From positions 85,581 to 149,580 of the forward strand of contig NZ_JAYTLQ010000042.1 in the NCBI RefSeq assembly GCF_043729335.1: a stretch of 64,000 nt of DNA, written 5' to 3'. Both the position numbers and the translations under genes were made by a program. The notes beneath the pieces were generated by a model. The model made no database searches, was not told the DNA's origin, and saw only the letters and a list, made by a program, of their open reading frames with translations. The stretch comes from Crenothrix sp. GTDB lineage: Bacteria; Pseudomonadota; Gammaproteobacteria; Methylococcales; Methylomonadaceae. Positions 14,372-46,069 of the stretch are shown piece after piece; positions within the stretch are counted from its first letter, which is position 1; each line of letters starts with the position of its first letter.

Positions 14372-14427
14372 TCATTAACCCTCGTAAAAGTTCAATAGCC
14401 TATAAAATAGCTCATTGAATTTGGCTT

Positions 14428-16936: not shown

Positions 16937-18535
16937 CTACTTTTCAGGTAAGCCCGCGATAAGTTTATCGGCTTGTGGCAACCACTGTGCCAAATAAGCA
17001 TTAATATATTTCGCCGTACCCATATTTTCCTCGCCTCTCTCAGGCCAACGCGCGGTATTTCTTGCCCTGGCACCGCCCTTATTTGATTCATTTAAATACT
17101 GCTGGAAGCGGGCTACCATTTTGCCCTGACTGAGTTCAGTAAGGCGCAATGCTTTCCAGCGCGCTTTTAACTTAGTATTAAAATGGGTAGCCGGAAGCTT
17201 GGTCAGTCTTTTGATCAGATTATTGGTATCGGGTTCAAATGCGAACCAATTAATCCCAAAAGAACCTTCATGATCCCACGCCAATAAATAAAATTTACCC
17301 GAGCCACTTTTAGCCAGTGAAAAATTATGTTTTATATTATCCTCACCATGTGACGCCAACACCAGCGCCCACCAATCCACCACGCTATCAAGATCAATCT
17401 TTTTGGCAATATCCGCAGTAAACTTCTGATCGGTTGACGTTGCAACGAAATTGGCAAATTCAACAAGTGGATTCCATCTTACAACATCTTTTGGCTTAGG
17501 ATAAACCTGATCAAAATTTGCTTTAACAGATGCCGAATCATAAAAAACATCCTCAAAAGCCGCCGCTTTATAAAACACACTGCCATTTTCAGGAACACTA
17601 AATTTAACTGTACGCCACTGCGGCAGACCCTTTGTATCGAGAGGTACGGTAATTTTTTGCAGGTCATACATTTTACGACTCGGTTTTTCATTTAAAGAAT
17701 AAACCCCGTCGTAAATTCCATTCTTAATGACTTCTATAAGATGACCTCTTAGGGATGCCTGTCCACGGGCAACGCCATGCGCATCAATATAAGCTCCAGG
17801 ACGTATAGCCCGAAAAATATCATAGCTCACCAGGTCGCGAAAAAAAGAAGTGTCGACATAGACTGCATTCAACATCCAGTCATTATCCTTGTTTAAATCT
17901 AGTAATTTTATATCCGATGCTTTTGTCCAGTCCGTTGCCTTACCAATTTGTACGCCCAGCGATTTTTTAATATAGGATTGCGTACCTGCACCGCGAAATT
18001 CAACCCCCATTTTTAGCACACCGGTATCTTGCTTAAAGCGCTGGCTCATCAATCGAAAACTACCTAGCGACTTTGGCTCATCAACAATTTTCGCTGCATT
18101 AAGCTGTAAAACAGGCAGGTTGGTGAAAATTAAAGTATACGCCTCCACTACACCATTCCGAGAACGTTGTATGGGAATTTTAGCCCCGTATTTGACACGC
18201 TTAAATCGAAAGAGACTACCGTTACTAACGGGAATGCCGTTAATGGCAAACTGATAGCCCGCATCGGCATATTTATAATTAAAGGTCATGTAATAGTCGA
18301 CGGGCTTATCAAAACCATTACCCAACGAGAAAAACACATTTTTATGCGCCCATTCAACACCGACCCCAATACCATTTAATTTCAAATCCTGCTGTAACCA
18401 TGTTACCGATGCAGGCTCAGGCGCTTTTAGCGGCTTATCGGCACTTATCGCAAAACTCGTTGATAAACTAAGGTGCGCGTACAGTAAAAATCTAAGTATT
18501 GACGTTAATCTAAATTTATTTTTCATATCATCCAT
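16937..18535 (-). CDS. CotH-family secreted kinase-like protein, paralog 3
   Basis: GVEFRGAGTQSYIKKS, DWMLNAVYVD, EDNIKHN, WDHEGSFG. Confidence 0.8.
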   Translation of the reverse strand: MDDMKNKFRLTSILRFLLYAHLSLSTSFAISADKPLKAPEPASVTWLQQDLKLNGIGVGVEWAHKNVFFSLGNGFDKPVDYYMTFNYKYADAGYQFAINGIPVSNGSLFRFKRVKYGAKIPIQRSRNGVVEAYTLIFTNLPVLQLNAAKIVDEPKSLGSFRLMSQRFKQDTGVLKMGVEFRGAGTQSYIKKSLGVQIGKATDWTKASDIKLLDLNKDNDWMLNAVYVDTSFFRDLVSYDIFRAIRPGAYIDAHGVARGQASLRGHLIEVIKNGIYDGVYSLNEKPSRKMYDLQKITVPLDTKGLPQWRTVKFSVPENGSVFYKAAAFEDVFYDSASVKANFDQVYPKPKDVVRWNPLVEFANFVATSTDQKFTADIAKKIDLDSVVDWWALVLASHGEDNIKHNFSLAKSGSGKFYLLAWDHEGSFGINWFAFEPDTNNLIKRLTKLPATHFNTKLKARWKALRLTELSQGKMVARFQQYLNESNKGGARARNTARWPERGEENMGTAKYINAYLAQWLPQADKLIAGLPEK

Positions 18536-28649: not shown

Positions 28650-31262
28650 CTACAGTACCCGCTTGATTTCGGTGCGCTCAAAGACTTCGATTTGATCGCC
28701 TACTCTAACATCGTTGTAGTTTTTAACGCCAATACCACATTCCATGCCCATCTTGACTTCAGCGGCATCGTCTTTAAAGCGGCGCAGTGACTCCAACTGG
28801 CCTTCATAGATGACCACGTTTTCACGTAGAACACGGATCGGCAGGTTGCGTTTGACAAAACCATCGATGACCATACAGCCAGCAACTGCGCCAAATTTCG
28901 GTGACTTAAATACATCACGGACAGCCGCAAGGCCAACAATTTGCTCGCGGATTTCAGGTGCCAACATACCGCTGATGGCTTTCTTGACTTCATCAATCGC
29001 ATCGTAAATGACGCTGTAGTAATGCAGGTCCACGCCTTTTTCTTCAATCAGGCGTCTAGCGGTAGCATCAGCACGCACGTTAAAGCCGATCAGGATAGCG
29101 CCAGAAGCCAATGCCAAATTGACATCGCCTTCGTTAATGCCGCCGACACCGCCAAAAATAACCTTTACTTCAACTTCTTCGTTAGACAAGCTCACCAATG
29201 AACCGCGTAAGGCTTCTAAGCTGCCTTGTACGTCGGTTTTAATCACCAGATTAACACTGGCCAATTCACCGGTGGTCATGCGTGAGAACACTTCATCCAG
29301 TTTAGACGCTTGTTGTGCGGCATGACGGGTGAATTTTTTACGGTCTTCACGATGCTTGGCCAAATCTTTGGCGATGCGCTCATTTTGCACGACCAAAAAT
29401 TCATCACCGGCATTCGGTGTGCCAGAAAGCCCTAAAATTTCCACCGGTACACAAGGTCCAGCGTCTTTAATCGGCTTGCCATTTTCATTAAACATGGCGC
29501 GGACACGGCCATATTCATGACCACACAACACCATTTGGCCATTTTCCAGCGTGCCTTTTTGAATCAATACCGTGGCTACTGCACCACGGCCTTTATCAAG
29601 ACGTGATTCAATGACAATACCGGAAGCCACACCTTCAACAGGCGCAGTTAATTCCAGAATTTCAGTTTGAACAATCAGGGCTTCGATCAATTCATCAATA
29701 CCGGCGCCGGTTTTGGCGGATATTTTCAGGAACTGTACATCGCCGCCCCACTCTTCTGCCAGAACCCCAATAACCGACAGCTCTTGCATTACCTTATCAG
29801 GATTGGCATCGGGCTTGTCCATCTTGTTCATGGCAATAATGATAGGCACGTTAGCTGCTTTCGCATGCTCAACCGCTTCTTTGGTTTGCGGCATCACACC
29901 ATCGTCAGCCGCAACCACCACGATAACCACGTCAGTGATATCAGCGCCACGAGCACGCATAGCGGTAAACGCTGCATGGCCCGGAGTATCTAAAAAGGTG
30001 ACCGCACCATGATCGGTTTTAACTTGATACGCACCGATATGCTGAGTAATACCACCGGCTTCGCCAGCAGCAACACGCGTTTTACGGATATAATCCAGCA
30101 GCGAGGTTTTACCGTGGTCAACGTGACCCATAATGGTCACAATCGGCGCACGCGGCAAAGCAACGCGGACATCTTCTATTTGCGCTTCAGCCAGCATTTC
30201 TTTTTCAAGATCGTCATCACTTTGCATGATAACTTTATGCCCCATTTCTTCCACCAAAATGGCGGCTGTGTCTTGATCTATGCTTTGATTGATGGTGGCC
30301 ATAATGCCCAACTTCATCAAATGCTTGATCACTAATGCTGCTTTAATGTTCATTTTCTGCGCGAGGTCAGACACAATGATCATTTCAGGAATGGTCACAT
30401 CATAAACAATCGGCGCACTTGGCATTTCAAACTGATGCTTACTATCAGAGACGGGCGCTACGCGCTGTGGCTGCTTACCTTTTTTCTTAAGTTTTTTGGT
30501 ATCTCTACCGCCGCCGCCACGATTATTTTCATCTTGTTGTTTCTTTTTATGGGCAGCGGCTTGCTTTTCTTCGGCTTGCTGTCTAACCCTCTCCTGATTT
30601 CTACTGATAGATTCCTGAAGGCGACGATCTTTATCGTCCTGCTTCTTTTTTACTTCATCCAGCTCTTTGGGTTTAACAGGCACTTTAACTTTCGTATCGC
30701 CCTTGATAGGTTGAACTAAAAATTTATCTTCTAGATCAATTTCAGGCTTAAGATCAGCATCAATAGTTGCAGTTACCGCCTCATCCTGGAAGTCATCGGG
30801 AACCGATTTTTCTGGCACGGACTTTACGGCTTCAGTAAGCGTTTCAACTGTCGCCTCAACAGCTATCGTTTGCTCTTGCGGCAATTCGACTTCATCAGAT
30901 ACTGCCGATTCAGCAATAGGATTAACGGTTTCTTTCAATTCATCCGGTTCGCGTTTTATGTAAGTTTTCTTTTTACGCACTTCAACTTGTATTGTTTTTG
31001 GTGCACTGCCTGGCGCATGGGTTTGTTTAATTTCAATAAACTTTTTACGCTCTAAAGTCACTCGCTTAGGCGCATCTTCTCCACCCACTTCAAGCTTGCC
31101 ATGCCGTTTGCGCAGATGACTGAGCAAGCGCATTTTTTCATCTTCGGAAATAACATCATCAGGAGAACTTGCAGATAACCCCGCTTCTTTCAGCTGTTCC
31201 AATAATCGTTCCAGAGGTATACGCACTACCTCAGCCAATTGCCGTACTGTTTTATCACTCAT
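28650..31262 (-). CDS. infB: Translation initiation factor IF-2
   Basis: [17 protein letters not shown]; start moved to MSDKTVRQ at 31262. Confidence 0.98.
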
Positions 31263-31275
31263 GTTCACCCCTACC

Positions 31276-32790
31276 CTACTTCGTTTTAGCCTCAGCAAAC
31301 CAAGGCTCACGCGCTTTCATAATCAACCGTGCCGCCCGCTCTTCAGTCATACCGGAAAACTTAAGCACGTCATCTATTGACTGTTCTGCTAAATCTTCCA
31401 TCGTAATAACCCCGCCACTGGCTAAATCATAAGCCAGATCTTTATCCATGCCTTCCATTTCCAGCAAATCTTGCGCCGGCGTGGCTGTTTCTATCTTTTC
31501 TTCTGCCGCAATAGCAATAATCAGCAAAGCATCTTTAGCTCGACTTTTCAGCTCGTTGACCAACTCTTCATCAAAACCTTCAATTTCCAGCATTTCGCTG
31601 ACCGGAACGTAAGCAATTTCCTCAACGGAATTAAAGCCTACTTCAGCTAAAATGGCGGCAATATCGGCATTAACATCCAATTGCTCAATGAACATTTGAG
31701 TAATTTTTTCAGCTTCAGCCTCGCTATTTTGCTCTGCCTTAGACGCATCAATAACATTTAATTCCCATCCGGTTAACTGAGTGGCCAATCTTACATTTTG
31801 GCCGCCACGGCCTATCGCCTGAGACAAGTTTTCAGTGCTCACTGCCAAATCCATGCTGTGCCTATCTTCATCGACAACAATAGATTGAATTTCAGCGGGT
31901 GACATGGCGTTAATAACAAATTGCGCTTCGTTAGGATTCCATAAAATAATATCGATACGCTCGCCGGATAACTCATTAGTTACCGATTGCACTCTAGACC
32001 CTCGCATGCCTACACATGCACCAACGGGGTCGAGTCTTGGATCGTTACCTTTGACGGCAATCTTGGCTCTGGAACCTGGATCACGCGCAGCACCCATCAC
32101 TGAAATCATGCCCTCACCTACCTCGGGCACTTCAAGACGGAACAGCGCTATCAATAATTCCGGTGCAGTACGACTAACAAACAGTTGTGGCCCACGCGGT
32201 TCAGAGCGAACATCTTTCAGGTAGCCTCTGATGCGATCACCAATACGAACCGGCTCACGGGGAATCATGTCTTCTTTAGCAATAAAGGCTTCAACATGGC
32301 CACCTAAATCCAGATAGACACTGCCTTTTTCGATACGTTTAACAATACCGGTTATCAAATCGCCAACACGCGATTGATAGGCTTCAACAATTTTTTTGCG
32401 TTCCGCTTCCCTAACTTTATGGATAATAACTTGTTTAGCAGTTTGCGCAGCAATACGACCAAAATCGACAGAGTCAATTTCTTCTTCGATTATATCGCCG
32501 ATCTGGGCATCGGGGTTATCAAATTGCGCCACATCCAGTAGAATTTGCGTGGTTGGAAATTCCACATCGCCATCAACCTGATCATCTGCAGCAACCACTT
32601 CCCACTGTCTATAGGTTGAATAATCGCCGGTTTTTCTATCAATAGAAACCCGCGCTCTAATCTGGTTAACATGACGTTTTACAGTTGCCGTTTCCAATGC
32701 TGACTCAATTGCCTGAAAAACAATTTCTTTGTCAATCTCCTTCTCATTTGAAAAGACTTCAGCTACCAACAAAATTTCTTTATTTGCCAT
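31276..32790 (-). CDS. nusA: Transcription elongation factor NusA
   Basis: [37 protein letters not shown]. Confidence 0.98.
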
Positions 32791-32803
32791 TGTATCCTCC
32801 TTT

Positions 32804-33265
32804 CTAAATTAAATACTCAGGCATTAAACGCGCTTTGCTCATGGCATCAAACGGGATTTCAAAAACCTGATCTGCATCTTTCAGCAGTATCACATCACCT
32901 TGAACACCGACAATCTCAGCAGTTATTTTACGACGACCCGCTATCGACTTGTATAGATGCACTGCTACCTTGCTGCCGATAAAGCGCTCAAATTGACTGA
33001 CTTTAAAAAACGGCCTGTCCGCACCTGGCGACGACACTTCTAACTGATATTCATCTTTAATGGGATCTTCAACATCCAGAACACCGCTAATTTGATGACT
33101 GACTTTAGTGCAGTCTTCAACCAAGATGCCATTTTCGCTGTCGATATAAATTCTTAATAGGCCGTGTTTTGGATGTGGGCTGTAATCAATCCCTACGCAT
33201 TCATACCCTAAACCTACAATAATTGGCTCAATCAACGCACTCAAATGTTCTGGGGGCTGTCTCAT
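32804..33265 (-). CDS. rimP: Ribosome maturation factor RimP
   Basis: LRIYID, LEVSSPGADRP; start moved to ATG 33265. Confidence 0.95.
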   Translation of the reverse strand: MRQPPEHLSALIEPIIVGLGYECVGIDYSPHPKHGLLRIYIDSENGILVEDCTKVSHQISGVLDVEDPIKDEYQLEVSSPGADRPFFKVSQFERFIGSKVAVHLYKSIAGRRKITAEIVGVQGDVILLKDADQVFEIPFDAMSKARLMPEYLI

Positions 33266-33290
33266 TTTTTTATCACTTATTTCCGCACAT

Positions 33291-33312
33291 AAAAAAAGAG
33301 CCCAAGGCTCTT
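33291..33312 (-). terminator. Terminator/attenuator hairpin just upstream of rimP
   Basis: Minus strand AAGAGCC-TTG-GGCTCTTTTTTT. Confidence 0.7.
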
Positions 33313-33356
33313 CCGTTGATACCCAATGCCAACCTTTTTTCCAAAGGCCAGAAAAC

Positions 33357-33376
33357 AAAAAACCCCTAAAAGGGGT
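33357..33376 (-). terminator. Terminator after tRNA-fMet
   Basis: Minus strand ACCCCT-TTT-AGGGGT-TTTTT. Confidence 0.75.
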
Positions 33377-33429
33377 CTCCAGGCAAGTTCCATTTTTTGC
33401 CTATACTACATATCCGTACACTATAAATC

Positions 33430-33506
<77 letters not shown>

Positions 33507-33519
33507 ATTGATTTGAGCC

Positions 33520-33547
33520 ATTATAGACAGTTTTTGGAAATACGCAA
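33520..33547 (-). promoter_or_regulatory. Sigma70 promoter of the tRNA-fMet-rimP operon
   Basis: TTGCGT-16 bp-TATAAT, ending 13 bp before the tRNA. Confidence 0.7.
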
Positions 33548-33682
33548 CTTAAATTTATAGAGTTATCAACTTCTGCAATAGAACCACTGGATCTGTAACG
33601 CCGCTTAAATTGGGCTTAGCTACAGTTTAGGCAGACTAGTAAGCTGTTTAACCTATGCTACGGATTCAATGTCTTTCACAAT

Positions 33683-33821
33683 TTATTTTAATTTTGCAAT
33701 TAGCATCTTAATTAACCTCAGCCCAATTAGCCTTGCCCTACATTTCCCGCATCACCTGCCCAACAAAGAAACCGAACACCTTATCCTTACCACTGCGGTA
33801 TTGCTCAACCTGATCCATATT
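33683..33821 (-). pseudogene. Decayed duplicate of the last 46 codons of gatB
   Basis: Translates [36 protein letters not shown](+T)KMLIAKLK*, against gat[46 protein letters not shown] (42413-42550). Confidence 0.93.
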
Positions 33822-34162
33822 ATTGATAATACCGCTGCTGACGATGAGCTTGTTAAGACAACTGCGAATGCGGGTTAAAGTTTAAATTTACGAACCTACC
33901 CAAAAAATTTTGGTGTTGATGTTTTTGTTTTACATAAAAAAGTTGTCATTCACAAAAAAATATTATTTCTTTCAATCTAATTGACAGATTGATGCTATCA
34001 GCCTAATGGACACCTAAATTTAGGCAAACTATTCGATAAACTCAATCGCCCCCTTCACAGCAATATCGAGCTTGGTAAGGCTCGGAATTGTACATTTAAT
34101 TGCTGTTCGGTTTCTCGTATGCTAGATTGTAAGGGCATTGATTTTCAACTCAGAGGGGCATT

Positions 34163-34582
34163 GTGATAACAGCGTTGCATTCCAAAAGAAACCGCCCTTA
34201 CCTGCACACGATAGTGTTCTTGCTGTTGGTGAGCTGGATTTCTTTTGCCATTTCGGCGACCTGTACCATGCCAATGCTTACGGTATCGTCGGCGATGCCC
34301 GATAATATGCCGGGATGTTCGGATTCTGGCACACCTAAGCATACATCCAATACTATGCAAGATTGTGCATTCAAGCCTTGCCTTGACTCGCAAGCCGATT
34401 CGCTCACCGATCTAAATCGTCTGGAGAAGCCAGATCTACCTGTTTTTATTTTGAGTCTCATTTGCACGTTTTTGTGCTTATTTCTAAGTTATCCACCCAC
34501 AAAAATTCCTCGTAAAAAATTTGATCCGCCGCTTTGGCGACGGATTCCACTCATTTATCGATTCTGCAGACTGCTGAATTAG
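34163..34582 (+). CDS. Small Cys/Met-containing membrane or periplasmic protein leading the metal-efflux operon
   Basis: Hydrophobic N-segment, CTMPM...GCS...CAFKPC, second hydrophobic segment. Confidence 0.65.
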   Translation: MITALHSKRNRPYLHTIVFLLLVSWISFAISATCTMPMLTVSSAMPDNMPGCSDSGTPKHTSNTMQDCAFKPCLDSQADSLTDLNRLEKPDLPVFILSLICTFLCLFLSYPPTKIPRKKFDPPLWRRIPLIYRFCRLLN

Positions 34583-34683
34583 CCAACCCTTTAAATCACC
34601 GTGCCACACCTTTAAACCGGTTTGGCATACTGGAGTTCTGCGTCTGCGGAGCCTGTTTTGTTCTGATTTGAGAGGGAAACTCA

Positions 34684-36060
34684 ATGTTTCTTGTTATTTG
34701 TCCGTGGCCATTGCGTCGCACTTATTCGGCGTGGACGGCTGTGTTTTTTGGGCTGGCGTTGTTTTCGCCCGGCCTGGTCTTTCATATTTCAACTGGCACA
34801 TTCCGCGTTAGTTGGGCTGAGGCAGTAGCCGAAACCCGGCTCGCTAACAACGATGAATCCATCCTGACACTAACCCAGGCGATTGAACTCGCCCTCACCG
34901 GCAACCCCGGACTGGCGGAAATCAGGGCGCGAGCCGAGGCGATGGCTGCCGTACCTTCCCAAGAAGGCACTTTGCCCGATCCGACGCTCAGGTTCGGTGC
35001 CCTTTACCTGCCGACCAGCAGCTTTAATCCTCGGCAGGATGATTTCACGATGATGGAAGTCGGCATCAGCCAGGACATTCCTTTTCCAGGCAAACTGGCA
35101 TTGCGGGAAAAAATCGCCAAACAGGAAGCACTGGCCGCCGCTGATTCCATTGATGAAGCGCGGTTGCGGTTGACGCGTGATGTAAAACAGGGCTGGTGGC
35201 GGCTGTTTTATTACGACCATGCCTTGACGCTACTGGACGAAGCCGAACACTTTTTCCAGCAGCTTATCGACATCGCCCAGGAAAAATACAAGGTGGGCAT
35301 AGGCACACAGCAAGATGTGCTGCTAGCCCAGCTTGAGCTGTCCAAACTTAAAAATGAAAAACTGGATCTGGCCAGTATGCGCCACGGCCAGAACGCCCGT
35401 ATCAATGCCTTGCTGGATCGAACACCGGAAATGCTTGTGCAGATTCCAGAGAAAGTCGAGTTCAAGTTGCCGGTCATTATCGGGTCTGCTTTACAAGACA
35501 AGGCGCTAAAAATGCGGCCTTTATTTACCCAACACCGCAACATGCTTGGGGCGGCGAAGGACAGGGTTGCTCTGGCGAAAAAGGCTTTTTACCCCGACTT
35601 CACCGTGGGTGCGTTTTATGATGTCCGGCAGAGTACGCCGTCAGGCCAGTCGCGTAGCGATTTCGCCAGTGTCCAATTAAGCATGAACCTGCCGATTTAT
35701 GCCGACCGCAAGCAAGCCAAGGCGGTTGCTCAGCGCCAGGGCGAACTCTTGCAAGCCCAATATGCCTTACAGGACGACCACCACAAAATTCAGGCCGAGA
35801 TCGCCGCCAAAGCCGCCGAGTACCAACAGACCAAAGAAAAGCTGCTGTTGCTCGAACAGGAAATCATCCCACAGGCGCAGCAAACCGTGGATGCGCTTCT
35901 GGCGGGTTATGAAGTCAGCCAAACCAACTTTACCGACCTGCTCCGCACGCAATTAAGTTTTTTCCAATACCAGACCCAGTATTGGCAAGCATTGACCAAC
36001 ACGCAACAAATCCTGGCTGAGCTGTCCGCCGAAGTGGGCGAAGAGGTAGGCCATGATTAA
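34684..36060 (+). CDS. TolC-family outer-membrane factor of heavy-metal RND efflux (CusC-like)
   Basis: LPDP, QDIPFPGKL, YKVG/YEVS...DLLRTQ helical repeats; overlaps the adaptor start. Confidence 0.88.
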   Translation: MFLVICPWPLRRTYSAWTAVFFGLALFSPGLVFHISTGTFRVSWAEAVAETRLANNDESILTLTQAIELALTGNPGLAEIRARAEAMAAVPSQEGTLPDPTLRFGALYLPTSSFNPRQDDFTMMEVGISQDIPFPGKLALREKIAKQEALAAADSIDEARLRLTRDVKQGWWRLFYYDHALTLLDEAEHFFQQLIDIAQEKYKVGIGTQQDVLLAQLELSKLKNEKLDLASMRHGQNARINALLDRTPEMLVQIPEKVEFKLPVIIGSALQDKALKMRPLFTQHRNMLGAAKDRVALAKKAFYPDFTVGAFYDVRQSTPSGQSRSDFASVQLSMNLPIYADRKQAKAVAQRQGELLQAQYALQDDHHKIQAEIAAKAAEYQQTKEKLLLLEQEIIPQAQQTVDALLAGYEVSQTNFTDLLRTQLSFFQYQTQYWQALTNTQQILAELSAEVGEEVGHD

Positions 36061-37477
36061 ATATTTTCTGGCAAGTTTGATTTTGATGCTGGGCGCTGGT
36101 CTTGGATTTTTGGCCGCACGACATCAAGGTTTATCGTTAAATTGGGACGCTAACGCCGTCAGCGAAAAAAAGCCGCTGTATTACCGCCATCCGATGAATC
36201 CCAAAGTCACCTCACAAACGCCCGCCAAGGACGAGATGGGGATGGACTATGTGGCGGTTTACGCAGAACCGCCAGCCTCAACCGCACCACCGCCAAAATC
36301 CGGAAAAATTCTCTATTACCGGCATCCGATGGGTGCGGCGGACACGTCACCTGTGCCGAAAAAAGATGAAATGGGCATGGACTATCTTCCGGTTTATGAA
36401 GGTGAACAGTTCGCACCTGGGCAGATTCAGATCAGCCCTGAAAAAATCCAGAAACTGGGCGTAACAACAGTAACTGTGGCAAAGCGAACGCTGACCCGCA
36501 GCATCCGTGCGTTGGGCAGCATTCAGGTGGACGAGCGGCGTGTCCACGCCGTGACACCGAAGTTTGAAGGTTGGATTCAGCATTTGTATGCCAATGCAAC
36601 CGGACAAACCATAAAACGCGGCCAGCCGCTGCTGGACATCTACAGCCCGGAACTGATGACCGCGCAACAGGAATATCTCATCGCCCGGCAAGGACAACGG
36701 GCGCTGCAACAGGCTAGCGACCAGGCGCAAGATACGGCGGCGCGTTTGGCTGACAACGCCTTGCAGCGCTTGCATTATTGGGATATTGGCCAGACTCAAT
36801 TACAGCGCTTACAACATCTGGAACAACCGCTGGAGACGCTGCTGCTGTTGTCGCCGGTCAATGGCGTGGTGCTGGACAAACCCGCCATTGAAGGGATGCG
36901 TTTCATGCCCGGCGAGTTGTTGTTTCGTATTGCCGATTTAAGCACGGTGTGGCTGTTGGCGGACGTGTTTGAGCAAGACAGCGGCGTAGTGCGCCCAGGC
37001 CAAACCGCGCAAGTGGCCATCAACGCTTACCCTAATCGGGTGTTCAGCGGCAAGGTTAGCTTTATTTATCCGACGCTGGCAACGGAAACCCGCACCGTTA
37101 AAGTGCGTATCGAGTTGCCTAATGGCGAAGGTTTGCTGAAGCCTGGACTGTATGGCAGCGTGACGCTAACCGCACGGGAAAATAAAAATACGCCTTTGGC
37201 GGTTCCCGATTCGGCGGTCATTGACAGTGGCACTCGGCAGATTGTGCTACTACAACGGGGTGATGGACAGTTCGAGCCGCGTGCCGTGAAACTGGGGCTA
37301 CAGGCCGATGGATACCGGCAAGTATTGACGGGGCTGAAAGCAGGTGATGAAGTCGTGACCCGGGCTAATTTCCTGATTGATGCCGAAAGTAACCTCAAGT
37401 CGGCCTTGGACAGTTTTAACAGTCCTGGTGCTGATGCGAATCGGGTTATGACCGAAACACAACACGGAGGCCACTAG
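36053..37477 (+). CDS. cusB: CusB-like periplasmic adaptor with two YYRHPM...KDEMGMDY metal-binding repeats
   Basis: Duplicated motif; GWIQHL, IYPTLATETRT, NFLIDAES. Confidence 0.88.
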   Translation: MIKYFLASLILMLGAGLGFLAARHQGLSLNWDANAVSEKKPLYYRHPMNPKVTSQTPAKDEMGMDYVAVYAEPPASTAPPPKSGKILYYRHPMGAADTSPVPKKDEMGMDYLPVYEGEQFAPGQIQISPEKIQKLGVTTVTVAKRTLTRSIRALGSIQVDERRVHAVTPKFEGWIQHLYANATGQTIKRGQPLLDIYSPELMTAQQEYLIARQGQRALQQASDQAQDTAARLADNALQRLHYWDIGQTQLQRLQHLEQPLETLLLLSPVNGVVLDKPAIEGMRFMPGELLFRIADLSTVWLLADVFEQDSGVVRPGQTAQVAINAYPNRVFSGKVSFIYPTLATETRTVKVRIELPNGEGLLKPGLYGSVTLTARENKNTPLAVPDSAVIDSGTRQIVLLQRGDGQFEPRAVKLGLQADGYRQVLTGLKAGDEVVTRANFLIDAESNLKSALDSFNSPGADANRVMTETQHGGH

Positions 37478-37479
37478 CC

Positions 37480-40400
37480 ATGTTGAACCATGTCATTGTT
37501 TGGTCTTTACGCAACGTATTTCTGGTGCTGCTGGCAACGCTGGCTATCGTAATTGGCGGGGTTTACGCGTTGTCGAGAATGCCGCTGGATGCGCTGCCCG
37601 ACCTGTCCGATGCACAAGTGATCGTTTACACCGAATTTCCAGGACAAGCGCCGCAAGTGGTCGAGGATCAAGTCACCTATCCTTTGACCACCGCCATGCT
37701 GAGCGTGCCACGCTCAAAAGTCGTGCGTGGCTTTTCCTTCTTCGGTGCATCTTTTGTTTACGTCATTTTTGAGGACGGCACCGATATTTACTGGGCGCGT
37801 TCACGGGTTCTGGAATATCTCACCACGCTCAGCGGACGCTTGCCGTCCAACGTGGCGCCGAAATTGGGGCCGGATGCCACCGGTGTCGGCTGGGTTTATC
37901 AATATGCGCTGTTGGCAAAGGATTATTCGCTGGCAGAATTGCGTACCCTGCAAGACTGGTTTGTACGTTACCAATTGACCAAAGCCAAAGGTGTGGCCGA
38001 GGTCGCCAGTATCGGCGGTTTTGTGCAGCAATATCAAGTCACCGTCGATCCGCATAAGCTGCAAGCTTACGGCATTGCTTTATCGACGCTCAGCAACACC
38101 ATCCGCAACAGTAACCGTGATGTCGGTGGACGGATTATCGAATTGGCCGAAACCGAGTACATGGTACGTGGACACGGTTATTTGCGCGGCCAGGCCGACT
38201 TGGAACGCTTGGTTCTGAAAGCTGAGCGTGGTATCCCTGTGTTGCTGCGTGATGTGGCTCGCGTGGAACTGGTTCCCGATGAACGCCGTGGCATCACCGA
38301 ATGGAACGGTGAAGGCGAGGCGGTTTCCGGCATTGCGCTGGCGCGTTACGGCCAAAATGCCCTGGAAGTCATCAGCAATATAAAAGACCGCTTGCATGAA
38401 ATCAGCGCCGGATTGCCAATCGGTGTTCGTATACAAACGGTTTATGACCGTTCCGAACTGATCCATCGCGCCATTGACAATTTGCGCCATACCTTGCTGG
38501 AAGAAAGCGCGGTGGTCGCCGTGGTTTGTGTGGTGTTCCTGCTGCATTTGCGTAGCGCCCTGGTGGCGATTTTGATGCTGCCAGTTGGCGTACTTTTTGC
38601 CTTCATCATCATGCAGGAGCTAGGGATGAATTCCAACATTATGAGCCTGGGCGGTATTGCCATCGCTATCGGTGCGATGGTGGATGCCGCCATTGTCATG
38701 ATCGAGAACGCCCATAAACATTTGGAGCGCGATTCCGGCCGCCTGCCGCGTTTTGAAATATTGCTCAATGCCTGCAAGGAAGTCGGTCCGCCGCTGTTTT
38801 TCAGCCTGTTGATTATCACTGTCTCATTCCTGCCGGTGTTCGCGCTGGAAGCGCAGGAAGGCCGCTTGTTTCATCCTTTGGCCTACACCAAGACGTTCGC
38901 AATGGCGGGTGCGGCATTGCTGTCGGTGACGCTGGTGCCGGTGTTGATGTGGCTGTTTGTACGCGGAAAAATTCTGCCGGAACAGCGCAATCCCATCAAC
39001 CGGGTCTTGATCTGGATTTACCGCCCAGTCATCGCCGGTGTCATGCGCCACAAAAAGCTGACGCTCGCTTTCGCGCTGCTGATGCTGGCGGCAAGTTGGT
39101 ATCCGGCCTCGCGTCTGGGTGGTGAATTCATGCCGACGCTGAATGAAGGCACGCTGTTGTTCATGCCGTTGACGGTACCCGGTTTGCCCCCGACCAAGGC
39201 CGCCGAATTGCTGCAAACCCAGGATCGCATTATCAAAAGTTTTCCCGAAGTTGAGTCGGTGTTCGGTAAAGCCGGACGCGCCCTGACTGCCACCGACCCG
39301 GCACCGTTGGAAATGTCGGAAACCATTGTCAACCTGAAACCAGAATCCAGCTGGCGACCTGGCCTGACGGTCGATAAGCTGATTGCAGAGATGGATCTGG
39401 CGCTGCAAATCCCCGGTGTCAGCAACTCCTGGACGATGCCGATCAAAAACCGTATTGATATGTTGGCCACCGGTATCCGCACACCTATCGGTATCAAGCT
39501 GTTCGGCAAAGACTTGGCGGAAATGGAACGCCTGGCGCAACAGATTGAACAGGCCGTTAAAACTGTCCACGGCACCACCAGTGCTTATGCCGAACGCATC
39601 ACCAGCGGCTTTTATCTGAACATCACGCCGGACTACGAGGCTTTGGCGCGTTATGGGCTGTTAATTGGCGATGTGCAAGATGTCATTGCCACCGCCATTG
39701 GTGGCGAGACCGTCACGACAATGTTGGAAGGACGCGAACGTTTCGCCGTCACCGTCCGTTACCCGCGCGAACTGCGGGATACCCCGCAAGCCATTGCCGA
39801 GCATGTTCTTGTCCCCACATCCGGCGGGGCGATGGTTCCCTTGGGGCAGTTGGCGCATCTGAGCCTGGACAAAGGCCCACCGTCAATACGTACCGAAAAT
39901 GCCTTGTTGTCCGCTTATATCTATGTCGATATGCGTGGCCGCGATATTGACGGTTATGTGCAGGATGCCAAACGGGCGGTACAAAAAGCGGTCAAGTTCC
40001 CTACCGGTTACTACATTGCCTGGAGTGGCCAGTTCGAGTACATGGAACGCGCCAAACAGCGTCTGCAACTGGTTGTTCCGCTTACACTGTGTATTATTTT
40101 CATCCTGCTGTATCTCAATTTCGGGCGCTTGACCGAAACCCTGATTGTCATGTTGTCCGTGCCCTTCGCGCTGATTGGCGGCATTTGGCTACTGTGGTTT
40201 CTGGATTACAACGTTAGCGTGGCGGTCGGTGTTGGCTTTATCGCCTTGGCGGGAGTCGCCGCAGAAACTGGCGTGGTGATGCTGATTTATCTGGATCATG
40301 CGTATCTTGACAAGCAACGGCAATGCCTGGAAGAAAAACGGGCTTTCACCGAGACTGATCTTTACGATGCGCTAATGACCGGCGCGGCAGAACGTTTGCG

Positions 40401-40602
40401 ACCGAAAATAATGACTGTCACCGCAATTATGGCTGGTCTCTTGCCCATTCTTTGGAGCACCGGCACGGGTTCGGAAGTCATGCGCCGCATCGCCGCGCCG
40501 ATGGTGGGCGGCATGGTGTCTTCAACGCTGTTGACCTTGATCGTCATTCCGGCGCTTTATGCCCTGTGCAAACAATATTCCATCAATAAACAACCCCGAT
40601 GA
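37480..40602 (+). CDS. cusA: CusA/SilA-type Cu(I)/Ag(I) RND transporter
   Basis: DALPDLSDAQVIV, FMPTLNEG, EMSET, WTMPIKNRIDMLATG, MRRIAAPMVGGM; Met triad of the CusA type. Confidence 0.93.
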   Translation: MLNHVIVWSLRNVFLVLLATLAIVIGGVYALSRMPLDALPDLSDAQVIVYTEFPGQAPQVVEDQVTYPLTTAMLSVPRSKVVRGFSFFGASFVYVIFEDGTDIYWARSRVLEYLTTLSGRLPSNVAPKLGPDATGVGWVYQYALLAKDYSLAELRTLQDWFVRYQLTKAKGVAEVASIGGFVQQYQVTVDPHKLQAYGIALSTLSNTIRNSNRDVGGRIIELAETEYMVRGHGYLRGQADLERLVLKAERGIPVLLRDVARVELVPDERRGITEWNGEGEAVSGIALARYGQNALEVISNIKDRLHEISAGLPIGVRIQTVYDRSELIHRAIDNLRHTLLEESAVVAVVCVVFLLHLRSALVAILMLPVGVLFAFIIMQELGMNSNIMSLGGIAIAIGAMVDAAIVMIENAHKHLERDSGRLPRFEILLNACKEVGPPLFFSLLIITVSFLPVFALEAQEGRLFHPLAYTKTFAMAGAALLSVTLVPVLMWLFVRGKILPEQRNPINRVLIWIYRPVIAGVMRHKKLTLAFALLMLAASWYPASRLGGEFMPTLNEGTLLFMPLTVPGLPPTKAAELLQTQDRIIKSFPEVESVFGKAGRALTATDPAPLEMSETIVNLKPESSWRPGLTVDKLIAEMDLALQIPGVSNSWTMPIKNRIDMLATGIRTPIGIKLFGKDLAEMERLAQQIEQAVKTVHGTTSAYAERITSGFYLNITPDYEALARYGLLIGDVQDVIATAIGGETVTTMLEGRERFAVTVRYPRELRDTPQAIAEHVLVPTSGGAMVPLGQLAHLSLDKGPPSIRTENALLSAYIYVDMRGRDIDGYVQDAKRAVQKAVKFPTGYYIAWSGQFEYMERAKQRLQLVVPLTLCIIFILLYLNFGRLTETLIVMLSVPFALIGGIWLLWFLDYNVSVAVGVGFIALAGVAAETGVVMLIYLDHAYLDKQRQCLEEKRAFTETDLYDALMTGAAERLRPKIMTVTAIMAGLLPILWSTGTGSEVMRRIAAPMVGGMVSSTLLTLIVIPALYALCKQYSINKQPR

Positions 40603-40678
40603 AGGAGACAACTGAACGATACATTAACAAACTGAAAAACAATATCACTAACCTATTGAATTATCTTGGAGAAAACCC

Positions 40679-41023
40679 ATGAAAACGAAATTACTGATTA
40701 CCCCATTTTTGGTGCTTGGTTTACTGACCGCCTGTGCCGAAATGAACCCGCATCCAATGGATATGAGCCAAGCCGTGCTAAATGCTGAAACCAAAGCCGA
40801 TCATGCCGCATTGGCGAAACACTATGATGAGGTAGCGGACGAAATGCAGCTTAAGGTGGATGAACACAAGAAACTGCTTAGCCAGTACGAATCAAAAGCC
40901 TATCTCTACGGTCGGCAGGCGGAAGATTTTAAGGCGCATTGTCAAAGGCTGGTTGATGATTATGAAAAAGTCGTCGCCTCTAACCGGAAAATGGCTGAGA
41001 TGCATCGCGGAATGGCGCAGTAG
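40679..41023 (+). CDS. Small His/Met-rich helical lipoprotein, putative metal binder
   Basis: Lipobox LTAC; DHAALAKHY, EHKK, AHCQ, MAEMHRGM; GGAGA upstream of ATG. Confidence 0.75.
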   Translation: MKTKLLITPFLVLGLLTACAEMNPHPMDMSQAVLNAETKADHAALAKHYDEVADEMQLKVDEHKKLLSQYESKAYLYGRQAEDFKAHCQRLVDDYEKVVASNRKMAEMHRGMAQ

Positions 41024-41026
41024 AAC

Positions 41027-41099
41027 CATAGGATGTGCCAACGATAGGAGGCGCATCACTCACGAACGATGCGCTTCACTTCGTTCAGCACATCCTATG
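41027..41099. repeat. REP-like nested palindrome
   Basis: CATAGGATGTGC...GCGCATC...GATGCGC...GCACATCCTATG. Confidence 0.8.
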
Positions 41100-41184
41100 C
41101 ACTTTTTTCAATCTCATCGCGATGACCTGAAGAATATTTGTGGGCTTTAATAATATCCGTATTATTATTTTTTTCATCTGACAA
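41095..41184 (-). pseudogene. Probable 5' fragment of a small cytoplasmic protein, cut at the REP
   Basis: AAGGGTG upstream of TTG; MSDEKNNNTDIIKAHKYSSGHRDEIEKS; the stop lies inside the REP arm. Confidence 0.4.
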
Positions 41185-41274
41185 TACACACCCTTGATGA
41201 AACAATCATTAATAATCAACTCGTGATTCCGCGCCAGAAAACCACGACAACTGGAATGGCGAACGATGCTGGCT

Positions 41275-42306
41275 CTAACCGTTCAGTAACTCTTCAGGGG
41301 TTTTAGCCTGAAAAATCTGTTTAGTCCAGGCTTCAATTTGCTCAGGGCTGGCACTGCGCACCTTATCTTGTAACAACTGGCTCACCGTGCCAAATTTGGA
41401 TTCGAGCAACAATAAAAAAAGCTTAGCCGCTTCTTGTTTTCGGCCCTCTTGTAGCCCTTGATGCATTCCCTCTTGTCGCCCTTTTTGTCGTCCTTCTTGC
41501 AATCCTTTTTCCAGTCCTTTTTCCAATCCTTTTTGCAGCCCTTCCTGTTCTGCTTGTTGTGTCCATTGTTTAACGGTTTCAGCTAACATGTCATGTACCT
41601 CTTGAAGATCGTTGAATTCTTTAATGTCAGCATTGGGAGCTTTTCTTGGCAATAACACACGGTTAATCCACACTGTAAAAGCACGCCTCAGGCTGGTTTG
41701 TTCCGCCGCTTTCAACCAGTCAATCAACCGCCATAATACACCTTGAATATCCTGGGCTGTCCGGCTGTTTTCCAGTTGGAACAAGGCCGCCACCAAATTA
41801 TGCAGGCTGCTTAACTCATCTTTGCTAAAGCTGCCTTCATCCAGTAATAAGTAACTGACCTGCGGACGGTATTTTTCCAAACCGGACGGTGCCGGATGGA
41901 TTAGAAAATCCAGATCTACCGGGGCTTGCCAGCGCCGCTCGCCGTTGTAGAGCACTACCGGTAACACAGGTGGTAATTTATCTGTTTTTGTTAAGTTGCC
42001 AGTGCGGATAATGTCCTGATACAGCAGTGCCAGATAGCCCAAAATACGCACGGCCATAAAGTGGTCGACAGTGGACTGGAATTCCAGCAGCAAATACACG
42101 TACAGCCACTCATCGCCCCAACGTACCCGCCAGATCAGGTCGTCTTCCCGATCACGCAGGTCATCAGTGACATAACTGCCGCTGACTTTTTCCAGGGTGG
42201 CAAAGTCGCATTGTTCTACCCACGCCTCTTTAACAAAGCCCTTGAGCAGGTCGGCAACCATTTCTGGATGGGAAAACAGTAGTTTATAGCTGTTGTCGTG
42301 CGACAT
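41275..42306 (-). CDS. Rpn (YhgA-like, PD-(D/E)XK) recombination-promoting nuclease
   Basis: HDNSYKLLFSHPEMVADLL, DLRDREDDLIWRV, LLEFQSTVD, PVVLYNG; C-terminal (E/Q)(K/E)G repeats. Confidence 0.92.
   Translation of the reverse strand: MSHDNSYKLLFSHPEMVADLLKGFVKEAWVEQCDFATLEKVSGSYVTDDLRDREDDLIWRVRWGDEWLYVYLLLEFQSTVDHFMAVRILGYLALLYQDIIRTGNLTKTDKLPPVLPVVLYNGERRWQAPVDLDFLIHPAPSGLEKYRPQVSYLLLDEGSFSKDELSSLHNLVAALFQLENSRTAQDIQGVLWRLIDWLKAAEQTSLRRAFTVWINRVLLPRKAPNADIKEFNDLQEVHDMLAETVKQWTQQAEQEGLQKGLEKGLEKGLQEGRQKGRQEGMHQGLQEGRKQEAAKLFLLLLESKFGTVSQLLQDKVRSASPEQIEAWTKQIFQAKTPEELLNG
41431..41547 (-). repeat. 12-bp-period coding repeat in Rpn (QEGLQKGLEKGLEKGLQEGRQKGRQEGMHQGLQEG)
   Basis: Direct reading of the translation. 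Confidence 0.85.
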
Positions 42307-42412
42307 GGCAAGGTTTGTTAATGTTAAGTTAAACTATACGCGCACACCATGAACGTATTAGCCCTGAAAATAGGGAACGCACACTCCCGAACGATGCACT
42401 AATCCAGCAACA

Positions 42413-43852
42413 CTATTTCAATTTTTCAATCAGCATTTTATTAACTTCAGCCGGATTAGCCTTACCCTGCATTTCCCGCATCACCTGCCCTACAAAGAAA
42501 CCAAATACCTTCTCTTTACCACTGCGGTATTGTTCAACCTGATCCATATTAGCAGCCATAATGCCATCAATAATAGCTTCTATCGCACCGCTATCACTGA
42601 TCTGTTTTAAGCCTTTAGCACTAATAACCTCATCAGCACTGACAGGATGCTGCCACATTTCTTCAAACACCTGCTTGGCGATTTTTCCGGAAATGGTATC
42701 GTCGCTGATACGCAGCAATAACCCCGCCAAACCTTGATAATCCACTGGCGAAGCAGAAATTTCAAGGCCCGCCTTATTCAGCGCCGCAGACAGTTCGCCG
42801 GTAATCCAGTTGGCACACAGCTTAGCATCACAACCGGATGTTGCAACCGTGGCTTCAAAATAATCCGCCAACGGGCGAGATGACGTTAATTGCGTGGCAT
42901 TGTCCTCATCCAAGCCATAGCTGTCTTTAAAGCGCTGCTTTTTGGCTACCGGCAATTCAGGCAACTGCGCCTTAATCTGCGCTTTAAACTCTTCGCTGAT
43001 GATGACCGGCAACAAATCGGGATCGGGAAAATACCGGTAATCATTGGCTTCTTCCTTACTGCGCATGGAACGAGTTTCATCTTTGACCGAATCGTACAAA
43101 CGGGTTTCCTGCACCACCCTGCCACCGCTTTCGATCAACTCGATTTGGCGCTCGACTTCATGGTTAATGGCTTTTTCGACAAACTTAAAGGAATTGATGT
43201 TTTTGATTTCGGCACGCGTACCAAATTCTGCCTGGCCTTTTGGGCGCACCGAGACATTGGCATCACAGCGGAATGAGCCTTCCTGCATATTGCCGTCACA
43301 TATCCCCAAGTAACGCACCAGCTCGTGCAGCTTGCGCATGTACGCCACCGCTTCTTTGGCCGAGCGCATATCCGGTTCGGAGACGATCTCCAGCAACGGC
43401 GTGCCAGCACGGTTTAAATCAATGCCACTCAAGCCCTGAAAGTTTTCATGCAGCGACTTGCCGGCATCTTCTTCTAAATGGGCGCGGGTAATACCGATGC
43501 GCTTGGTTTCGCCGTCGACCTCAATATCCAGATGACCTATGCCAACAATGGGCAAATCCATCTGGCTGATTTGATAGCCTTTCGGTAAATCAGGGTAAAA
43601 ATAATTTTTGCGGGCAAACACCGAATACGGGGCAATATGCGCCTCAATCGCCATGCCAAAGATAACCGCCATACGCACGGCTTCTTGATTTAATACGGGC
43701 AATACGCCTGGAAAACCCAAGTCAACCGCACAAGCTTGGGTATTGGGCGCTGCGCCATATGCTGTCGCTGCGCCCGAAAAAATCTTTGATTTTGTTGCTA
43801 ACTGAGTATGAATTTCCAGACCTATTACGACTTCCCAATTTTCCATATTCAT
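42413..43852 (-). CDS. gatB: Asp/Glu-tRNA amidotransferase subunit B
   Basis: [40 protein letters not shown]. Confidence 0.98.
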
Positions 43853-43855
43853 CCC

Positions 43856-45307
43856 CTACTCGAAGCCTTTAGGTCTTTTTTGATGCCAATCAGTCACTTT
43901 TTGGTACTGATGGGCAATATTTAACAAACGCTGTTCGGCAAAATAATTACCGATGATGTGCAAGCCGACCGGCTTGTTTTGGGCAAAGCCCGCCGGAACT
44001 GACATCGCAGGCAAACCTGCCAAATTAATGGCAATGGTATAAATATCGGACAGGTACATTTCAATCGGGTTGTTGATTTTTTCGCCAATACCAAACGCCA
44101 CCGACGGCGCGACCGGCCCCATAATCACATCCACTTCTTGCAGGGCGCGTTTAAAGTCTTCGGCGATTAAGCGCCTTACTTTTTGGGCTTTTAAGTAATA
44201 AGCATCATAGTAACCGGCAGATAACGCATAAGTCCCCATCAGGATACGGCGCTTAACTTCCTTGCCGAATGCCTCGCCGCGTGAACGCACGTACAAATCG
44301 GTTAAATCGACCGGATCTTTGCAGCGATAGCCAAAGCGCACGCCGTCAAAACGCGACAAATTAGCGGAACATTCGGCGGAGGCAATCACGTAATAGGCAG
44401 GAATCGCCAAATTTAAGTTGGGAATGGAAATTTCCTTGATGGTTGCGCCGAGCTTTTGATATTCATTAATCGCCGCTTCAATGACCACAGCGACATCAGG
44501 GGCTAAGCCTTCCCCAAAAAACTCTTTTGGCAAACCGATGGTTAGGCCTTGCAAGCTATTATTAAGCCCTGCCAGATAATCCGGCACAGGGCTATCGACG
44601 CTGGTGGAGTCTTTTGGATCAAATCCTGCCATCGTTTGCAACACAACAGCGGCATCTTCCGCGCTGCGCGTCATCGGGCCGCCTTGGTCCAAACTGGAGG
44701 CATAGGCAATCATACCGTAACGGGATACGCGACCGTAAGTAGGTTTTAAACCGGTAATGCCGCAATGCGAAGCCGGTTGACGAATAGAACCGCCTGTATC
44801 GGTACCGGTGGCGCATACCGCCAATCCCGCCGCTACCGCCGCCGCTGAACCACCGGATGAACCGCCCGGTACAGCGTTCAGATCCCAAGGATTTTTGACC
44901 GCACCGTAATAGCTGTTCTCATTAGATGAACCCATCGCAAACTCATCCATATTGAGCTTGCCTAGCATGACCGCACCTGCCGCATTAAACTTGTCTATTA
45001 CCGTGGCGTTATAGGGTGCCAAAAAATTATCCAGCATTTTAGAGCCGCAACTGGTTTTAATGCCCTGTGTACAAAAAATATCTTTTTGCGCAATGGGAAT
45101 GCCAGTGAGTAGATTGCTGTCGCCCGATGCCAGTTTTAAATCGGCAGTTTTGGCCGTTTGCAAAGCCAGTTCTTCGGTGACGGTAATATAAGCATTCAGT
45201 GCTTGGTGCTGCTTAATTCTATTTAAGTAGGATTGCGTTAACTCAACGCTGGAAAACTCACCGGCACGCAAACCCTGCGCCAGTTCAATAATGGTTTTAC
45301 TGTGCAT
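43856..45307 (-). CDS. gatA: Asp/Glu-tRNA amidotransferase subunit A
   Basis: [21 protein letters not shown]; start moved to 45307. Confidence 0.98.
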
Positions 45308-45323
45308 ATATTTAGGGGACTTG

Positions 45324-45611
45324 TTACTCAATAACCTTAGGGACGAGATACAACCCAGCGTCAACTTGCGGGGCTATCGATTGAAATTGTTGGTGCTGAT
45401 CGTATTCGGTGACTTCATCTGTCCTTAAGCGCTGTCCCTGTTCCATAGGATGTGCCATAGGCTCTATACCGTCGGTGTTTAAGTCGCTCATTTGCTCCAT
45501 TAAACTTAACATGCCTGATAAATCTTGGGTGTAAGCTTCAATATCAAGCTCATCAATGCCTAGCCGCGCCAAATGCGCAATTTTCTTTACATCACTTGCC
45601 GTTAACGACAT
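45324..45611 (-). CDS. gatC: Asp/Glu-tRNA amidotransferase subunit C
   Basis: [23 protein letters not shown]. Confidence 0.97.
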
Positions 45612-46069
45612 TTTTTTTCCTATCAAGAAACAAAATTTATTGATCAATACAGGTTACTCATCATACAAAACTTAACCGTAGCGACTTATCTGATAAAGTG
45701 TATAAAAACTTCACCTTATTAGCGTGCTTATTGTCAGCTTTTTTGCCTTTTAAAAATTTCCTATCGATAACAATGTGCAATAAAAAACATAACTTGTTAA
45801 TATTCAACACAGTATAAAAAAGGCATGATTTTTGCTTTAATTTAGGATTATCGCTTTACCTAAGAAAGCACATTAAGACTCTGCTTTTACACTCATCTAA
45901 CTACTTATTGAAAGATAATAGTATTTTTTAACACCTACACCGTCTTTTAATAAAAGCACTTTACTTCCAGACAAAGTTTTTACACATATTTGAGCTATAT
46001 GATACTTTATATCTTGCTCAAATACCCGCTTGATTGATAAAGTAACCCTATTTTTCATACCTTAGCTAA

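Follow-up and report, generated by a model that had tools for sequence, protein, structure and literature searches.

How does a housekeeping gene come to end twice, with 8.6 kb of foreign genes between its two ends and no integrase visible among them? This question is posed by the window, a 64,000-nucleotide stretch of the Crenothrix sp. contig NZ_JAYTLQ010000042.1 (positions 85,581 to 149,580 of the forward strand). In it, gatB, the last gene of gatCAB, is followed by an island and then by a second, damaged copy of its own 3' end. The block between the two gatB copies consists of foreign genes, namely, those for a copper/silver pump and an Rpn defense nuclease. An earlier reading of the letters (the original prediction) took the layout for an integration by gene-end replacement and raised the prospect of an undescribed, gatB-anchored capture route. 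What the locus holds is a real and tidy displacement of a gene end at a housekeeping gene; it is not a new capture or recombination system.

The two ends of gatB

The features that frame the island are as follows, with positions counted in the window.

42413 to 43852, minus strand: gatB, intact, 479 amino acids (Pfam GatB_N, E = 1e-123; GatB_Yqey, E = 4e-52)
42413 to 42550, minus strand: live 3' end of gatB, comprising the last 45 codons and the stop codon, which would have arrived with the cargo
33683 to 33821, minus strand: relic of the native gatB 3' end, with a nonsense codon, a +1 frameshift, and a Pro>Trp change
33507 to 33682: native gatB-tRNA spacer, 176 bp, recognized by alignment with the spacers of the relatives L001 and L189 to L191
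33430 to 33506, minus strand: tRNA-Met (CAT), found by ARAGORN and Rfam upstream of rimP-nusA-infB, which we take to be of the initiator type (tRNA-fMet) from its position and its sequence (a mismatch at C1-A72 and, in the anticodon stem, three G-C pairs)

The live end and the relic lie in the same orientation on the minus strand, 8,729 bp apart, and they differ by 16 substitutions and by one T inserted in the relic. The lesions of the relic are a CAG>TAG nonsense change, the +1 frameshift, and a CCG>TGG change. The first 35 bp of the repeat, called the core here, match at 34 of 35 positions and hold two 17-bp identical stretches, with a 21-bp identical block further on. Realignment reproduced the coordinates, the numbers of substitutions and insertions, and the single core mismatch of the original prediction in every count. 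Upstream (5') of the core, similarity drops abruptly to the random level, as judged codon by codon and by eye. That comparison also ruled out an unrecognized stretch of relic farther upstream. No other pair of this kind occurs around the island, and a 139-bp repeat at 88% identity cannot be due to chance.

The simplest dismissals of this repeat would be a chimeric contig or a local, in-place duplication of the 139 bp, and we assign them a negligible probability, as nothing speaks for them beyond the existence of the repeat. Two contigs, each from a separate ENA metagenome assembly, repeat the arrangement with 100% identity over 14.7 to 17.6 kb. A further metagenome contig of 4.9 kb (99.98% identical) spans gatB to the start of the Rpn gene, and exactly the same GatB is encoded in eight contigs altogether. 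Because independent assemblies show the identical arrangement, misassembly is unlikely. The duplication half of this explanation is dealt with below, where the substitutions are counted.

The native site was identified from relatives. The nearest GatB is that of Crenothrix polyspora (96% amino acid identity), followed by a lineage at 94% and by Methylobacter tundripaludum-like genomes at 92%; relationships of NusA agree, with C. polyspora falling in the same 90% cluster. In five M. tundripaludum-like loci (L001 and L189 to L192), the site is empty, and gatB is followed by tRNA-fMet about 146 bp on. The prediction that relatives would show gatB and then tRNA-fMet about 180 bp later is thus borne out, although the relatives nearest in sequence have undergone rearrangement. 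C. polyspora has gatB and tRNA-fMet apart, with gatB followed by a small open reading frame (ORF) and genes for SIMPL, MFS, and uracil-DNA glycosylase (UDG), with cysH before tRNA-fMet, and with no relic.

Homology between the window and L001 covers 30944 to 33824 and 42413 to 45638, and both segments map to the single gatB end of L001. On the relic side, this homology stops at 33824. The window DNA that lies between the relic and the tRNA can be aligned with parts of the spacers of L001 and L189, and the live gatB end runs straight into island DNA that has no homology to the native spacer. Because the empty sites have a spacer that matches the DNA beside the relic, the relic is the native gatB end, displaced from its gene as had been proposed. 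Judged by position and alignment, the window keeps the ancestral adjacency of gatB and tRNA-fMet, with the relic as the native end.

The substitutions indicate that both ends have a functional past. Counted by the Nei-Gojobori method over 24 synonymous sites, the live end and the relic differ by 10 synonymous and 4 nonsynonymous changes, to which the TAG/TAA stop codon difference and the CAG>TAG nonsense change are added. These counts give a synonymous divergence (dS) of 0.59 and a nonsynonymous divergence (dN) of 0.038 (dN/dS, about 0.065). This gatB and that of C. polyspora differ by a dS of 0.57. Since the synonymous distance between the live end and the relic equals that between this gatB and its Crenothrix counterpart, both worked as gatB ends in lineages about that far apart. 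A duplicate drifting neutrally in place should show about 30% synonymous changes, whereas 10 of 15 are observed (P = 0.004), and so in-place duplication is rejected. Because the differences fall mostly at synonymous sites, the live end came from another lineage. The original prediction had proposed on the same grounds that both ends evolved as functional gatB in separate lineages, and the counts uphold it.

Polarized against four relatives, seven of the differences are specific to the relic, the inactivating ones included. Three are specific to the live end (D>E, A>E, and one silent change), and the rest fall at sites that also vary among relatives; both live-specific residues are found in other Methylobacter GatB proteins. 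For the live end and the relic, the ordering of dS values and the clade-diagnostic sites are within noise for 24 synonymous sites, as 139 bp carries too little signal. A clade placement by seven polymorphic sites, which had made the relic Crenothrix-like and the live end Methylobacter-like, was withdrawn because each site was free to match either of two sequences per clade. Over the longer genes, clade-diagnostic sites are Crenothrix-like in gatA by 29 to 5 and are mixed throughout gatB, at 26 to 22; the mixed sites hint at older recombination within gatB.

Routes of entry at gatB

We propose, with about even confidence, that the island entered by one-ended homologous recombination with an illegitimate far joint; we infer both the recombination pathway and the gene order of the donor. 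A piece of chromosome from a related methanotroph would have entered the lineage, carrying the 3' part of its gatB and the DNA downstream of it, which would have held an Rpn defense gene and a previously acquired, higher-GC cusCBA copper/silver operon. The donor DNA would have paired with the resident chromosome on one side only, with gatB as the homologous anchor, and its nonhomologous far end would have been joined, illegitimately, at a point within the resident gatB 139 bp short of the stop codon. Such an event would count as homology-facilitated illegitimate recombination, or gene-end displacement. This far joint would lie at 33821/33822, where similarity ends abruptly. The outcome would be a gatB finished by the donor end, 8.6 kb of cargo, and a resident end that now decays beside tRNA-fMet. 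A dedicated recombinase would be unnecessary, and Rpn and cus would both be cargo. A joint that falls after the stop codon would leave no footprint, which may explain why such relics are rare.

We favor one-ended recombination because relatives have empty sites and the live end and relic have diverged, because no integrase or transposase was found in the island and no tyrosine recombinase in the rest of the window or close to gatB, and because the slot after gatB is variable among close relatives. It is also favored because there is an independent second case in Methylomonas lenta (L012), because its congener L011 shows the donor-type arrangement for that case (Zeta remnants after an intact gatB and no relic), and because a precedent model exists for type VI secretion system (T6SS) and Rhs loci (PMC5361080).

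The second case emerged from a set of 167 gammaproteobacterial gatB loci, 135 with at least 1 kb and 104 with at least 5 kb of downstream sequence. A second gatB end was present in only 1 of the 135 other loci with at least 1 kb, that of M. lenta, where 95 bp are duplicated (NZ_LUUI01000126.1, 11333-11428 and 12729-12824). The two copies differ by six substitutions, all synonymous, and by their stop codons, with no amino acid change (dS 0.39, dN 0). The insert, therefore, starts with an anchor of its own functional history in M. lenta as it does in the window (dS 0.59, dN 0.038). In the 1.3-kb M. lenta insert, a gene for a Zeta-toxin-like ATPase is accompanied by a small ORF and a repeated element; neither an integrase nor Rpn is present. 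In L011 (11435-11832), two decayed remnants of the Zeta gene directly follow gatB. From this gene order, the live end and cargo of the M. lenta case are the normal chromosomal neighborhood of a relative. Sliding identity along the L012 gatB gave no sign of a breakpoint.

These loci also bear on whether gatB is a dedicated or recurrent attachment target, as the original prediction had suggested. That idea is not supported, given 1 case in 135 other loci and a boundary at 95 rather than 139 bp. Among close relatives, the slot after gatB is taken variously by SIMPL, Uma2, Rpn, and toxin-antitoxin genes. One could posit that the gatB 3' end is a genuine, unlisted landing site in methanotrophs, where small integrase-less modules (for defense, toxin-antitoxin functions, or metal resistance) are captured time and again through a common mechanism, with the gene end itself as the recombination site, possibly aided by the PD-(D/E)XK nucleases (Rpn and Uma2) that recur around gatB. 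We give this reading only a slim chance.

Other observations on these loci deserve mention. Two Crenothrix-type genomes (L186, 11531-12726, and L187, 3226-3786) are alike except between gatB and the MFS gene that they share, where the former has a small ORF and SIMPL and the latter a Uma2 PD-(D/E)XK nuclease; there is no relic in either. M. lenta has Uma2 as well, just upstream of its gatB (L012, 9365-9970). At a contig edge in L059 (3-161, minus strand), the first 53 GatB residues, 81% identical to those of the window, are inverted about 10 kb upstream of a full gatB; either a duplication or an edge effect of the assembly could account for this fragment.

The leading rival is site-specific integration. 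Integrase-borne islands that restore the 3' ends of protein genes include SGI1 in trmE, mobilizable genomic islands (MGIs) in yicC, and SCCmec in rlmH, and cis-mobilizable elements (CIMEs) lack an integrase. The island resembles these elements in that direct repeats of a gene 3' end flank the cargo and a carried replacement end keeps the gene intact. It could be a remnant of, or have been mobilized in trans by, an integrative element whose attP held the 139-bp gatB end, with the integrase lost (perhaps where Rpn now sits) or located elsewhere, as for a CIME. The layout is that of classical attL and attR sites in which the gene end is restored, the 35 bp that are best conserved (34/35) lie at the 5' edge of the repeat, which is the usual crossover position, and Rpn holds the usual place of an integrase beside the target gene, where its own flanking 19-bp repeats suggest a later insertion. 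Moreover, related cus operons in Rhodoferax and Accumulibacter directly precede tyrosine recombinases.

The recombinase itself was sought with a jackhmmer tyrosine-recombinase profile, seeded with an XerD-like ORF and run against 6,269 ORFs from all loci and the window. Jackhmmer took the place of a Pfam scan of the 114 clusters of ORFs downstream of gatB, because that scan listed only the 25 commonest families and could not exclude single integrases; the P4 and lambda integrases as sole queries gave no matches. The profile gave no hit to a tyrosine recombinase, either in the 64-kb window or in the 8 kb downstream of gatB at any of the 167 loci, in agreement with the earlier remark that no integrase is visible. 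XerD-like genes alone were detected 8 to 10 kb downstream of gatB, at three loci. The profile does pick up recombinases elsewhere, namely, next to some Rpn paralogues and, in two Betaproteobacteria, directly after cusA, and so it works. By Pfam and NCBIfam, no integrase or transposase was found in the island; serine recombinases were not profiled, but no unassigned ORF there exceeds 139 amino acids.

Besides this absence, several differences argue against site-specific integration. Unlike integrase-borne islands, this one has no integrase in cis, its repeats are 88% identical rather than nearly identical, and use of the site is not recurrent in the 135 other loci, where the only other case has a different boundary. 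Furthermore, the M. lenta cargo lies natively after gatB in L011. The core is kept in all relatives at 33/35, and so its identity needs no special cause. No viral contigs encoding the GatB C terminus were found, and a literature search found no paper that treats gatB as an attachment site (attB). On balance, site-specific integration is unlikely, albeit a serious contender.

The direct repeats could also have been used by RecA. In a Campbell-type single crossover, a circle with one gatB end, looped out between the repeats in an earlier host, would have reintegrated within the 35-bp core. This would give the exact topology without an integrase, and the flanking direct repeats, with their 17-bp and 21-bp identical blocks, could indeed loop the island out. 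Nevertheless, such a crossover would account for the spread of the island and not for the first duplicated structure, 139 bp at 88% identity are a poor RecA substrate, and no other copy of the island was found in the Rpn-locus, CusA, and small-ORF tblastn searches. We regard this route as improbable.

The original prediction also hinted at Rpn as the agent, which would cut at or near the gatB end and promote the insertion of itself and its neighbors. Rpn is the only nuclease in the island and adjoins the live end. In E. coli, the overexpression of Rpn proteins raises RecA-independent recombination, and rpnC has apparently entered the same intergenic site twice (PMC5350276). However, these proteins are nonspecific endonucleases, with RpnA cutting without sequence specificity (PMC5350276), and Rpn genes are described as toxin-antitoxin defense genes with an internal antitoxin, variable ends, and no terminal repeats, target duplications, or evidence of transposition (PMC10400941). 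Published work thus describes no transposase or site-specific activity for Rpn proteins (PMC5350276, PMC10400941). No gatB fragment lies close to any of 20 related Rpn loci, Rpn is absent from the M. lenta case, and the Rpn of the island itself looks like a multicopy defense gene. Rpn-driven capture is, therefore, most unlikely. The wider claim of an undescribed, Rpn-driven route anchored in gatB is likewise not supported, considering the different boundary and toxin-antitoxin cargo in L012, the L011 remnants without a relic, and the lack of a tyrosine recombinase in the window or close downstream of any gatB.

One-ended recombination has its own difficulties, and four points weigh against it. 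First, no donor was found in which gatB is directly followed by Rpn or cus, as searched with Rpn and CusA homologues and by tblastn with the small ORFs. The nearest Rpn proteins are 83 to 96% identical, the match at 96% being a partial one, the nearest CusA is 87% identical, and none adjoins gatB; in a metagenome scan with GatB, none of the matches listed was closer than 85%. Second, the near-perfect core at the 5' edge of the repeat is also the expected place of a site-specific or single homologous crossover. Third, sliding identity showed no recombination breakpoint inside gatB, a comparison with little power because the nearest relative is only about 90% identical. Finally, the natural competence of these methanotrophs is not established here.

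One-ended recombination has parallels elsewhere. Homology-facilitated illegitimate recombination was reportedly described by de Vries and Wackernagel and by Prudhomme and colleagues, both in 2002, and C-terminal displacement in Rhs, contact-dependent inhibition (CDI), and T6SS loci is said to go back to Jackson and colleagues in 2009. As in those loci, the incoming DNA here would open with a conserved gene segment as its anchor and carry new cargo behind it, and the resident 3' part would be pushed downstream, to remain as an orphan that keeps a fragment of the conserved gene, with no integrase involved. Unlike in those loci, the anchor is an essential housekeeping gene rather than a polymorphic toxin, the displaced piece is functionless and decaying, the cargo is a metal efflux operon with a defense gene, and the pathway is a proposed one. 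To account for orphan immunity arrays in T6SS effector-immunity loci and for Rhs C-terminal displacement, the same one-sided model has been put forward (PMC5361080, Kirchberger et al. 2017).

The cargo and its surroundings

The original prediction counted only a cus-type operon and an Rpn nuclease between the gatB copies. Both are present, and the count was nearly complete, with two small ORFs and a hairpin to be added.

33822 to 34162: A+T-rich island end adjoining the relic, about 340 bp, GC 0.37 to 0.39
34163 to 34582, plus strand: orf139, small membrane ORF upstream of cusC, annotated as a gene in public assemblies
34684 to 36060, plus strand: cusC-type outer-membrane factor (PF02321 OEP, E = 2.7e-40)
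36053 to 37477, plus strand: cusB-type periplasmic adaptor (PF16576, E = 1.7e-77; the best NCBIfam match is CusB, below cutoff)
37480 to 40602, plus strand: cusA-type heavy-metal resistance-nodulation-division (RND) pump (TIGR00914, score of 1234 versus a cutoff of 701)
40679 to 41023, plus strand: orf114, small predicted lipoprotein, with a signal peptide and a Cys in the translation
41027 to 41099, plus strand: strong hairpin followed by a T run, after orf114, terminator-like or repetitive extragenic palindrome (REP)-like (DNA fold, -25.2 kcal/mol; z = -7.5)
41275 to 42306, minus strand: Rpn (YhgA-like) PD-(D/E)XK nuclease gene, convergent (PF04754, E = 1.4e-31; PF14261; C-terminal DUF4351; TIGR01784)
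41444 to 41503: tract in the Rpn gene that encodes four-residue repeats, made of 12-nucleotide DNA repeats
42307 to 42412: spacer of 106 bp from the gatB stop codon to the Rpn start, with a partial copy of the hairpin repeat at about 42360 to 42400

The operon has the C-B-A order of E. coli cusCFBA. Its CusA is 54% identical to E. coli CusA and has Met at the positions aligned to Met573, Met623, and Met672, which we take to be the three-methionine metal site of the E. coli pump. Unlike the E. coli system, the island has no cusF or cusRS among its genes by Pfam and NCBIfam annotation, and the two unrelated small ORFs flank the operon. No family match was obtained for orf139, nor was any Pfam or NCBIfam family found for orf114. 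The GC content of the cus block is 51 to 57%, versus about 42 to 50% in the flanks. Its nearest relatives are in metagenome-assembled genomes (MAGs) of Methylococcaceae (84 to 87% amino acid identity), followed by Betaproteobacteria at about 75%, and relatives at about 70% nucleotide identity lie on Methylomonas and Methylobacter plasmids. The donor had probably acquired the operon at an earlier time, from a source of higher GC content. A tyrosine-recombinase gene lies directly 3' of cusA in a Rhodoferax MAG (L112, 13438-14499) and in an Accumulibacter MAG (L165, 13344-14045), which hints that related operons travel on integrative elements there.

The Rpn protein scores above the curated cutoffs (PF04754, 110 bits versus 21; TIGR01784, 66.3 versus 52.1), and it belongs to a family that is multicopy in Crenothrix and related MAGs. 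Its predicted tail, with four-residue repeats of the GLQK/GLEK type and DUF4351, matches the variable tail at the C terminus of the RpnS region. Among the matches listed, the lengths of many Rpn homologues step by four residues (315, 319, 323, 327, 331, and 335 amino acids), which matches the published variation in four-residue repeats. Many of these homologues are on very short contigs, as expected of a multicopy gene that breaks assemblies.

The 19-bp direct repeat CACTCNCGAACGATGCNCT occurs in the window only at 41057-41075, inside the stable hairpin, and at 42382-42400, in the partial hairpin between Rpn and gatB, and so lies on either side of Rpn. This placement suggests that Rpn arrived as its own cassette, and the gene looks like a multicopy defense toxin-antitoxin gene flanked by its own repeats. 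A 41-bp match to the hairpin is found in a Methylomicrobium locus. Tyrosine-recombinase ORFs lie 0.3 to 4 kb from Rpn paralogues at several MAG loci (L086, 9174-9725 and 11281-12045; L090, 8015-8587; L091, 8117-9526; L084, 13264-14796); in three contigs of the MAG MFD00082.bin.3.91, the gap is 0.3 to 1.4 kb, and in L084, which is from a Methylococcales MAG, it is about 3.9 kb. In its PF04754 and TIGR01784 matches, variable tail with four-residue repeats, multiple copies, and apparent single-gene gain and loss with variable ends, this Rpn resembles the reported Rpn and RpnL-RpnS genes (PMC5350276, PMC10400941). Unlike for those genes, it sits beside a displaced gene end, a position not previously reported, which we judge to be incidental.

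Elsewhere in the window, a 178-nucleotide inverted repeat (4133-4310 and 8675-8852, 90% complementary, with no Rfam match) surrounds a 4.4-kb segment in which a hydrolase-like gene is accompanied by genes for a LysR regulator and a DUF155 protein. At 12755 to 18535, there are three paralogous CotH-kinase-like genes in tandem, with about 71 to 81% nucleotide identity between copies, and two tandem 226-amino-acid paralogues with no family match lie beside them at 10255 to 11720.

Meaning for methanotrophs

A Crenothrix/Methylobacter-like methanotroph needs copper to oxidize methane. By its predicted gene content, the island would have given such an organism an efflux pump for copper and silver. 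More broadly, on the reading favored here, the locus and its counterpart in Methylomonas are clean natural examples of how foreign genes can be gained without a mobile-element enzyme. The end of a housekeeping gene would serve as the homologous handle, and the old end persists as a datable footprint. A systematic search for such footprints could measure the share of horizontal transfer in uncultured bacteria that is due to one-sided homologous recombination versus integrases.

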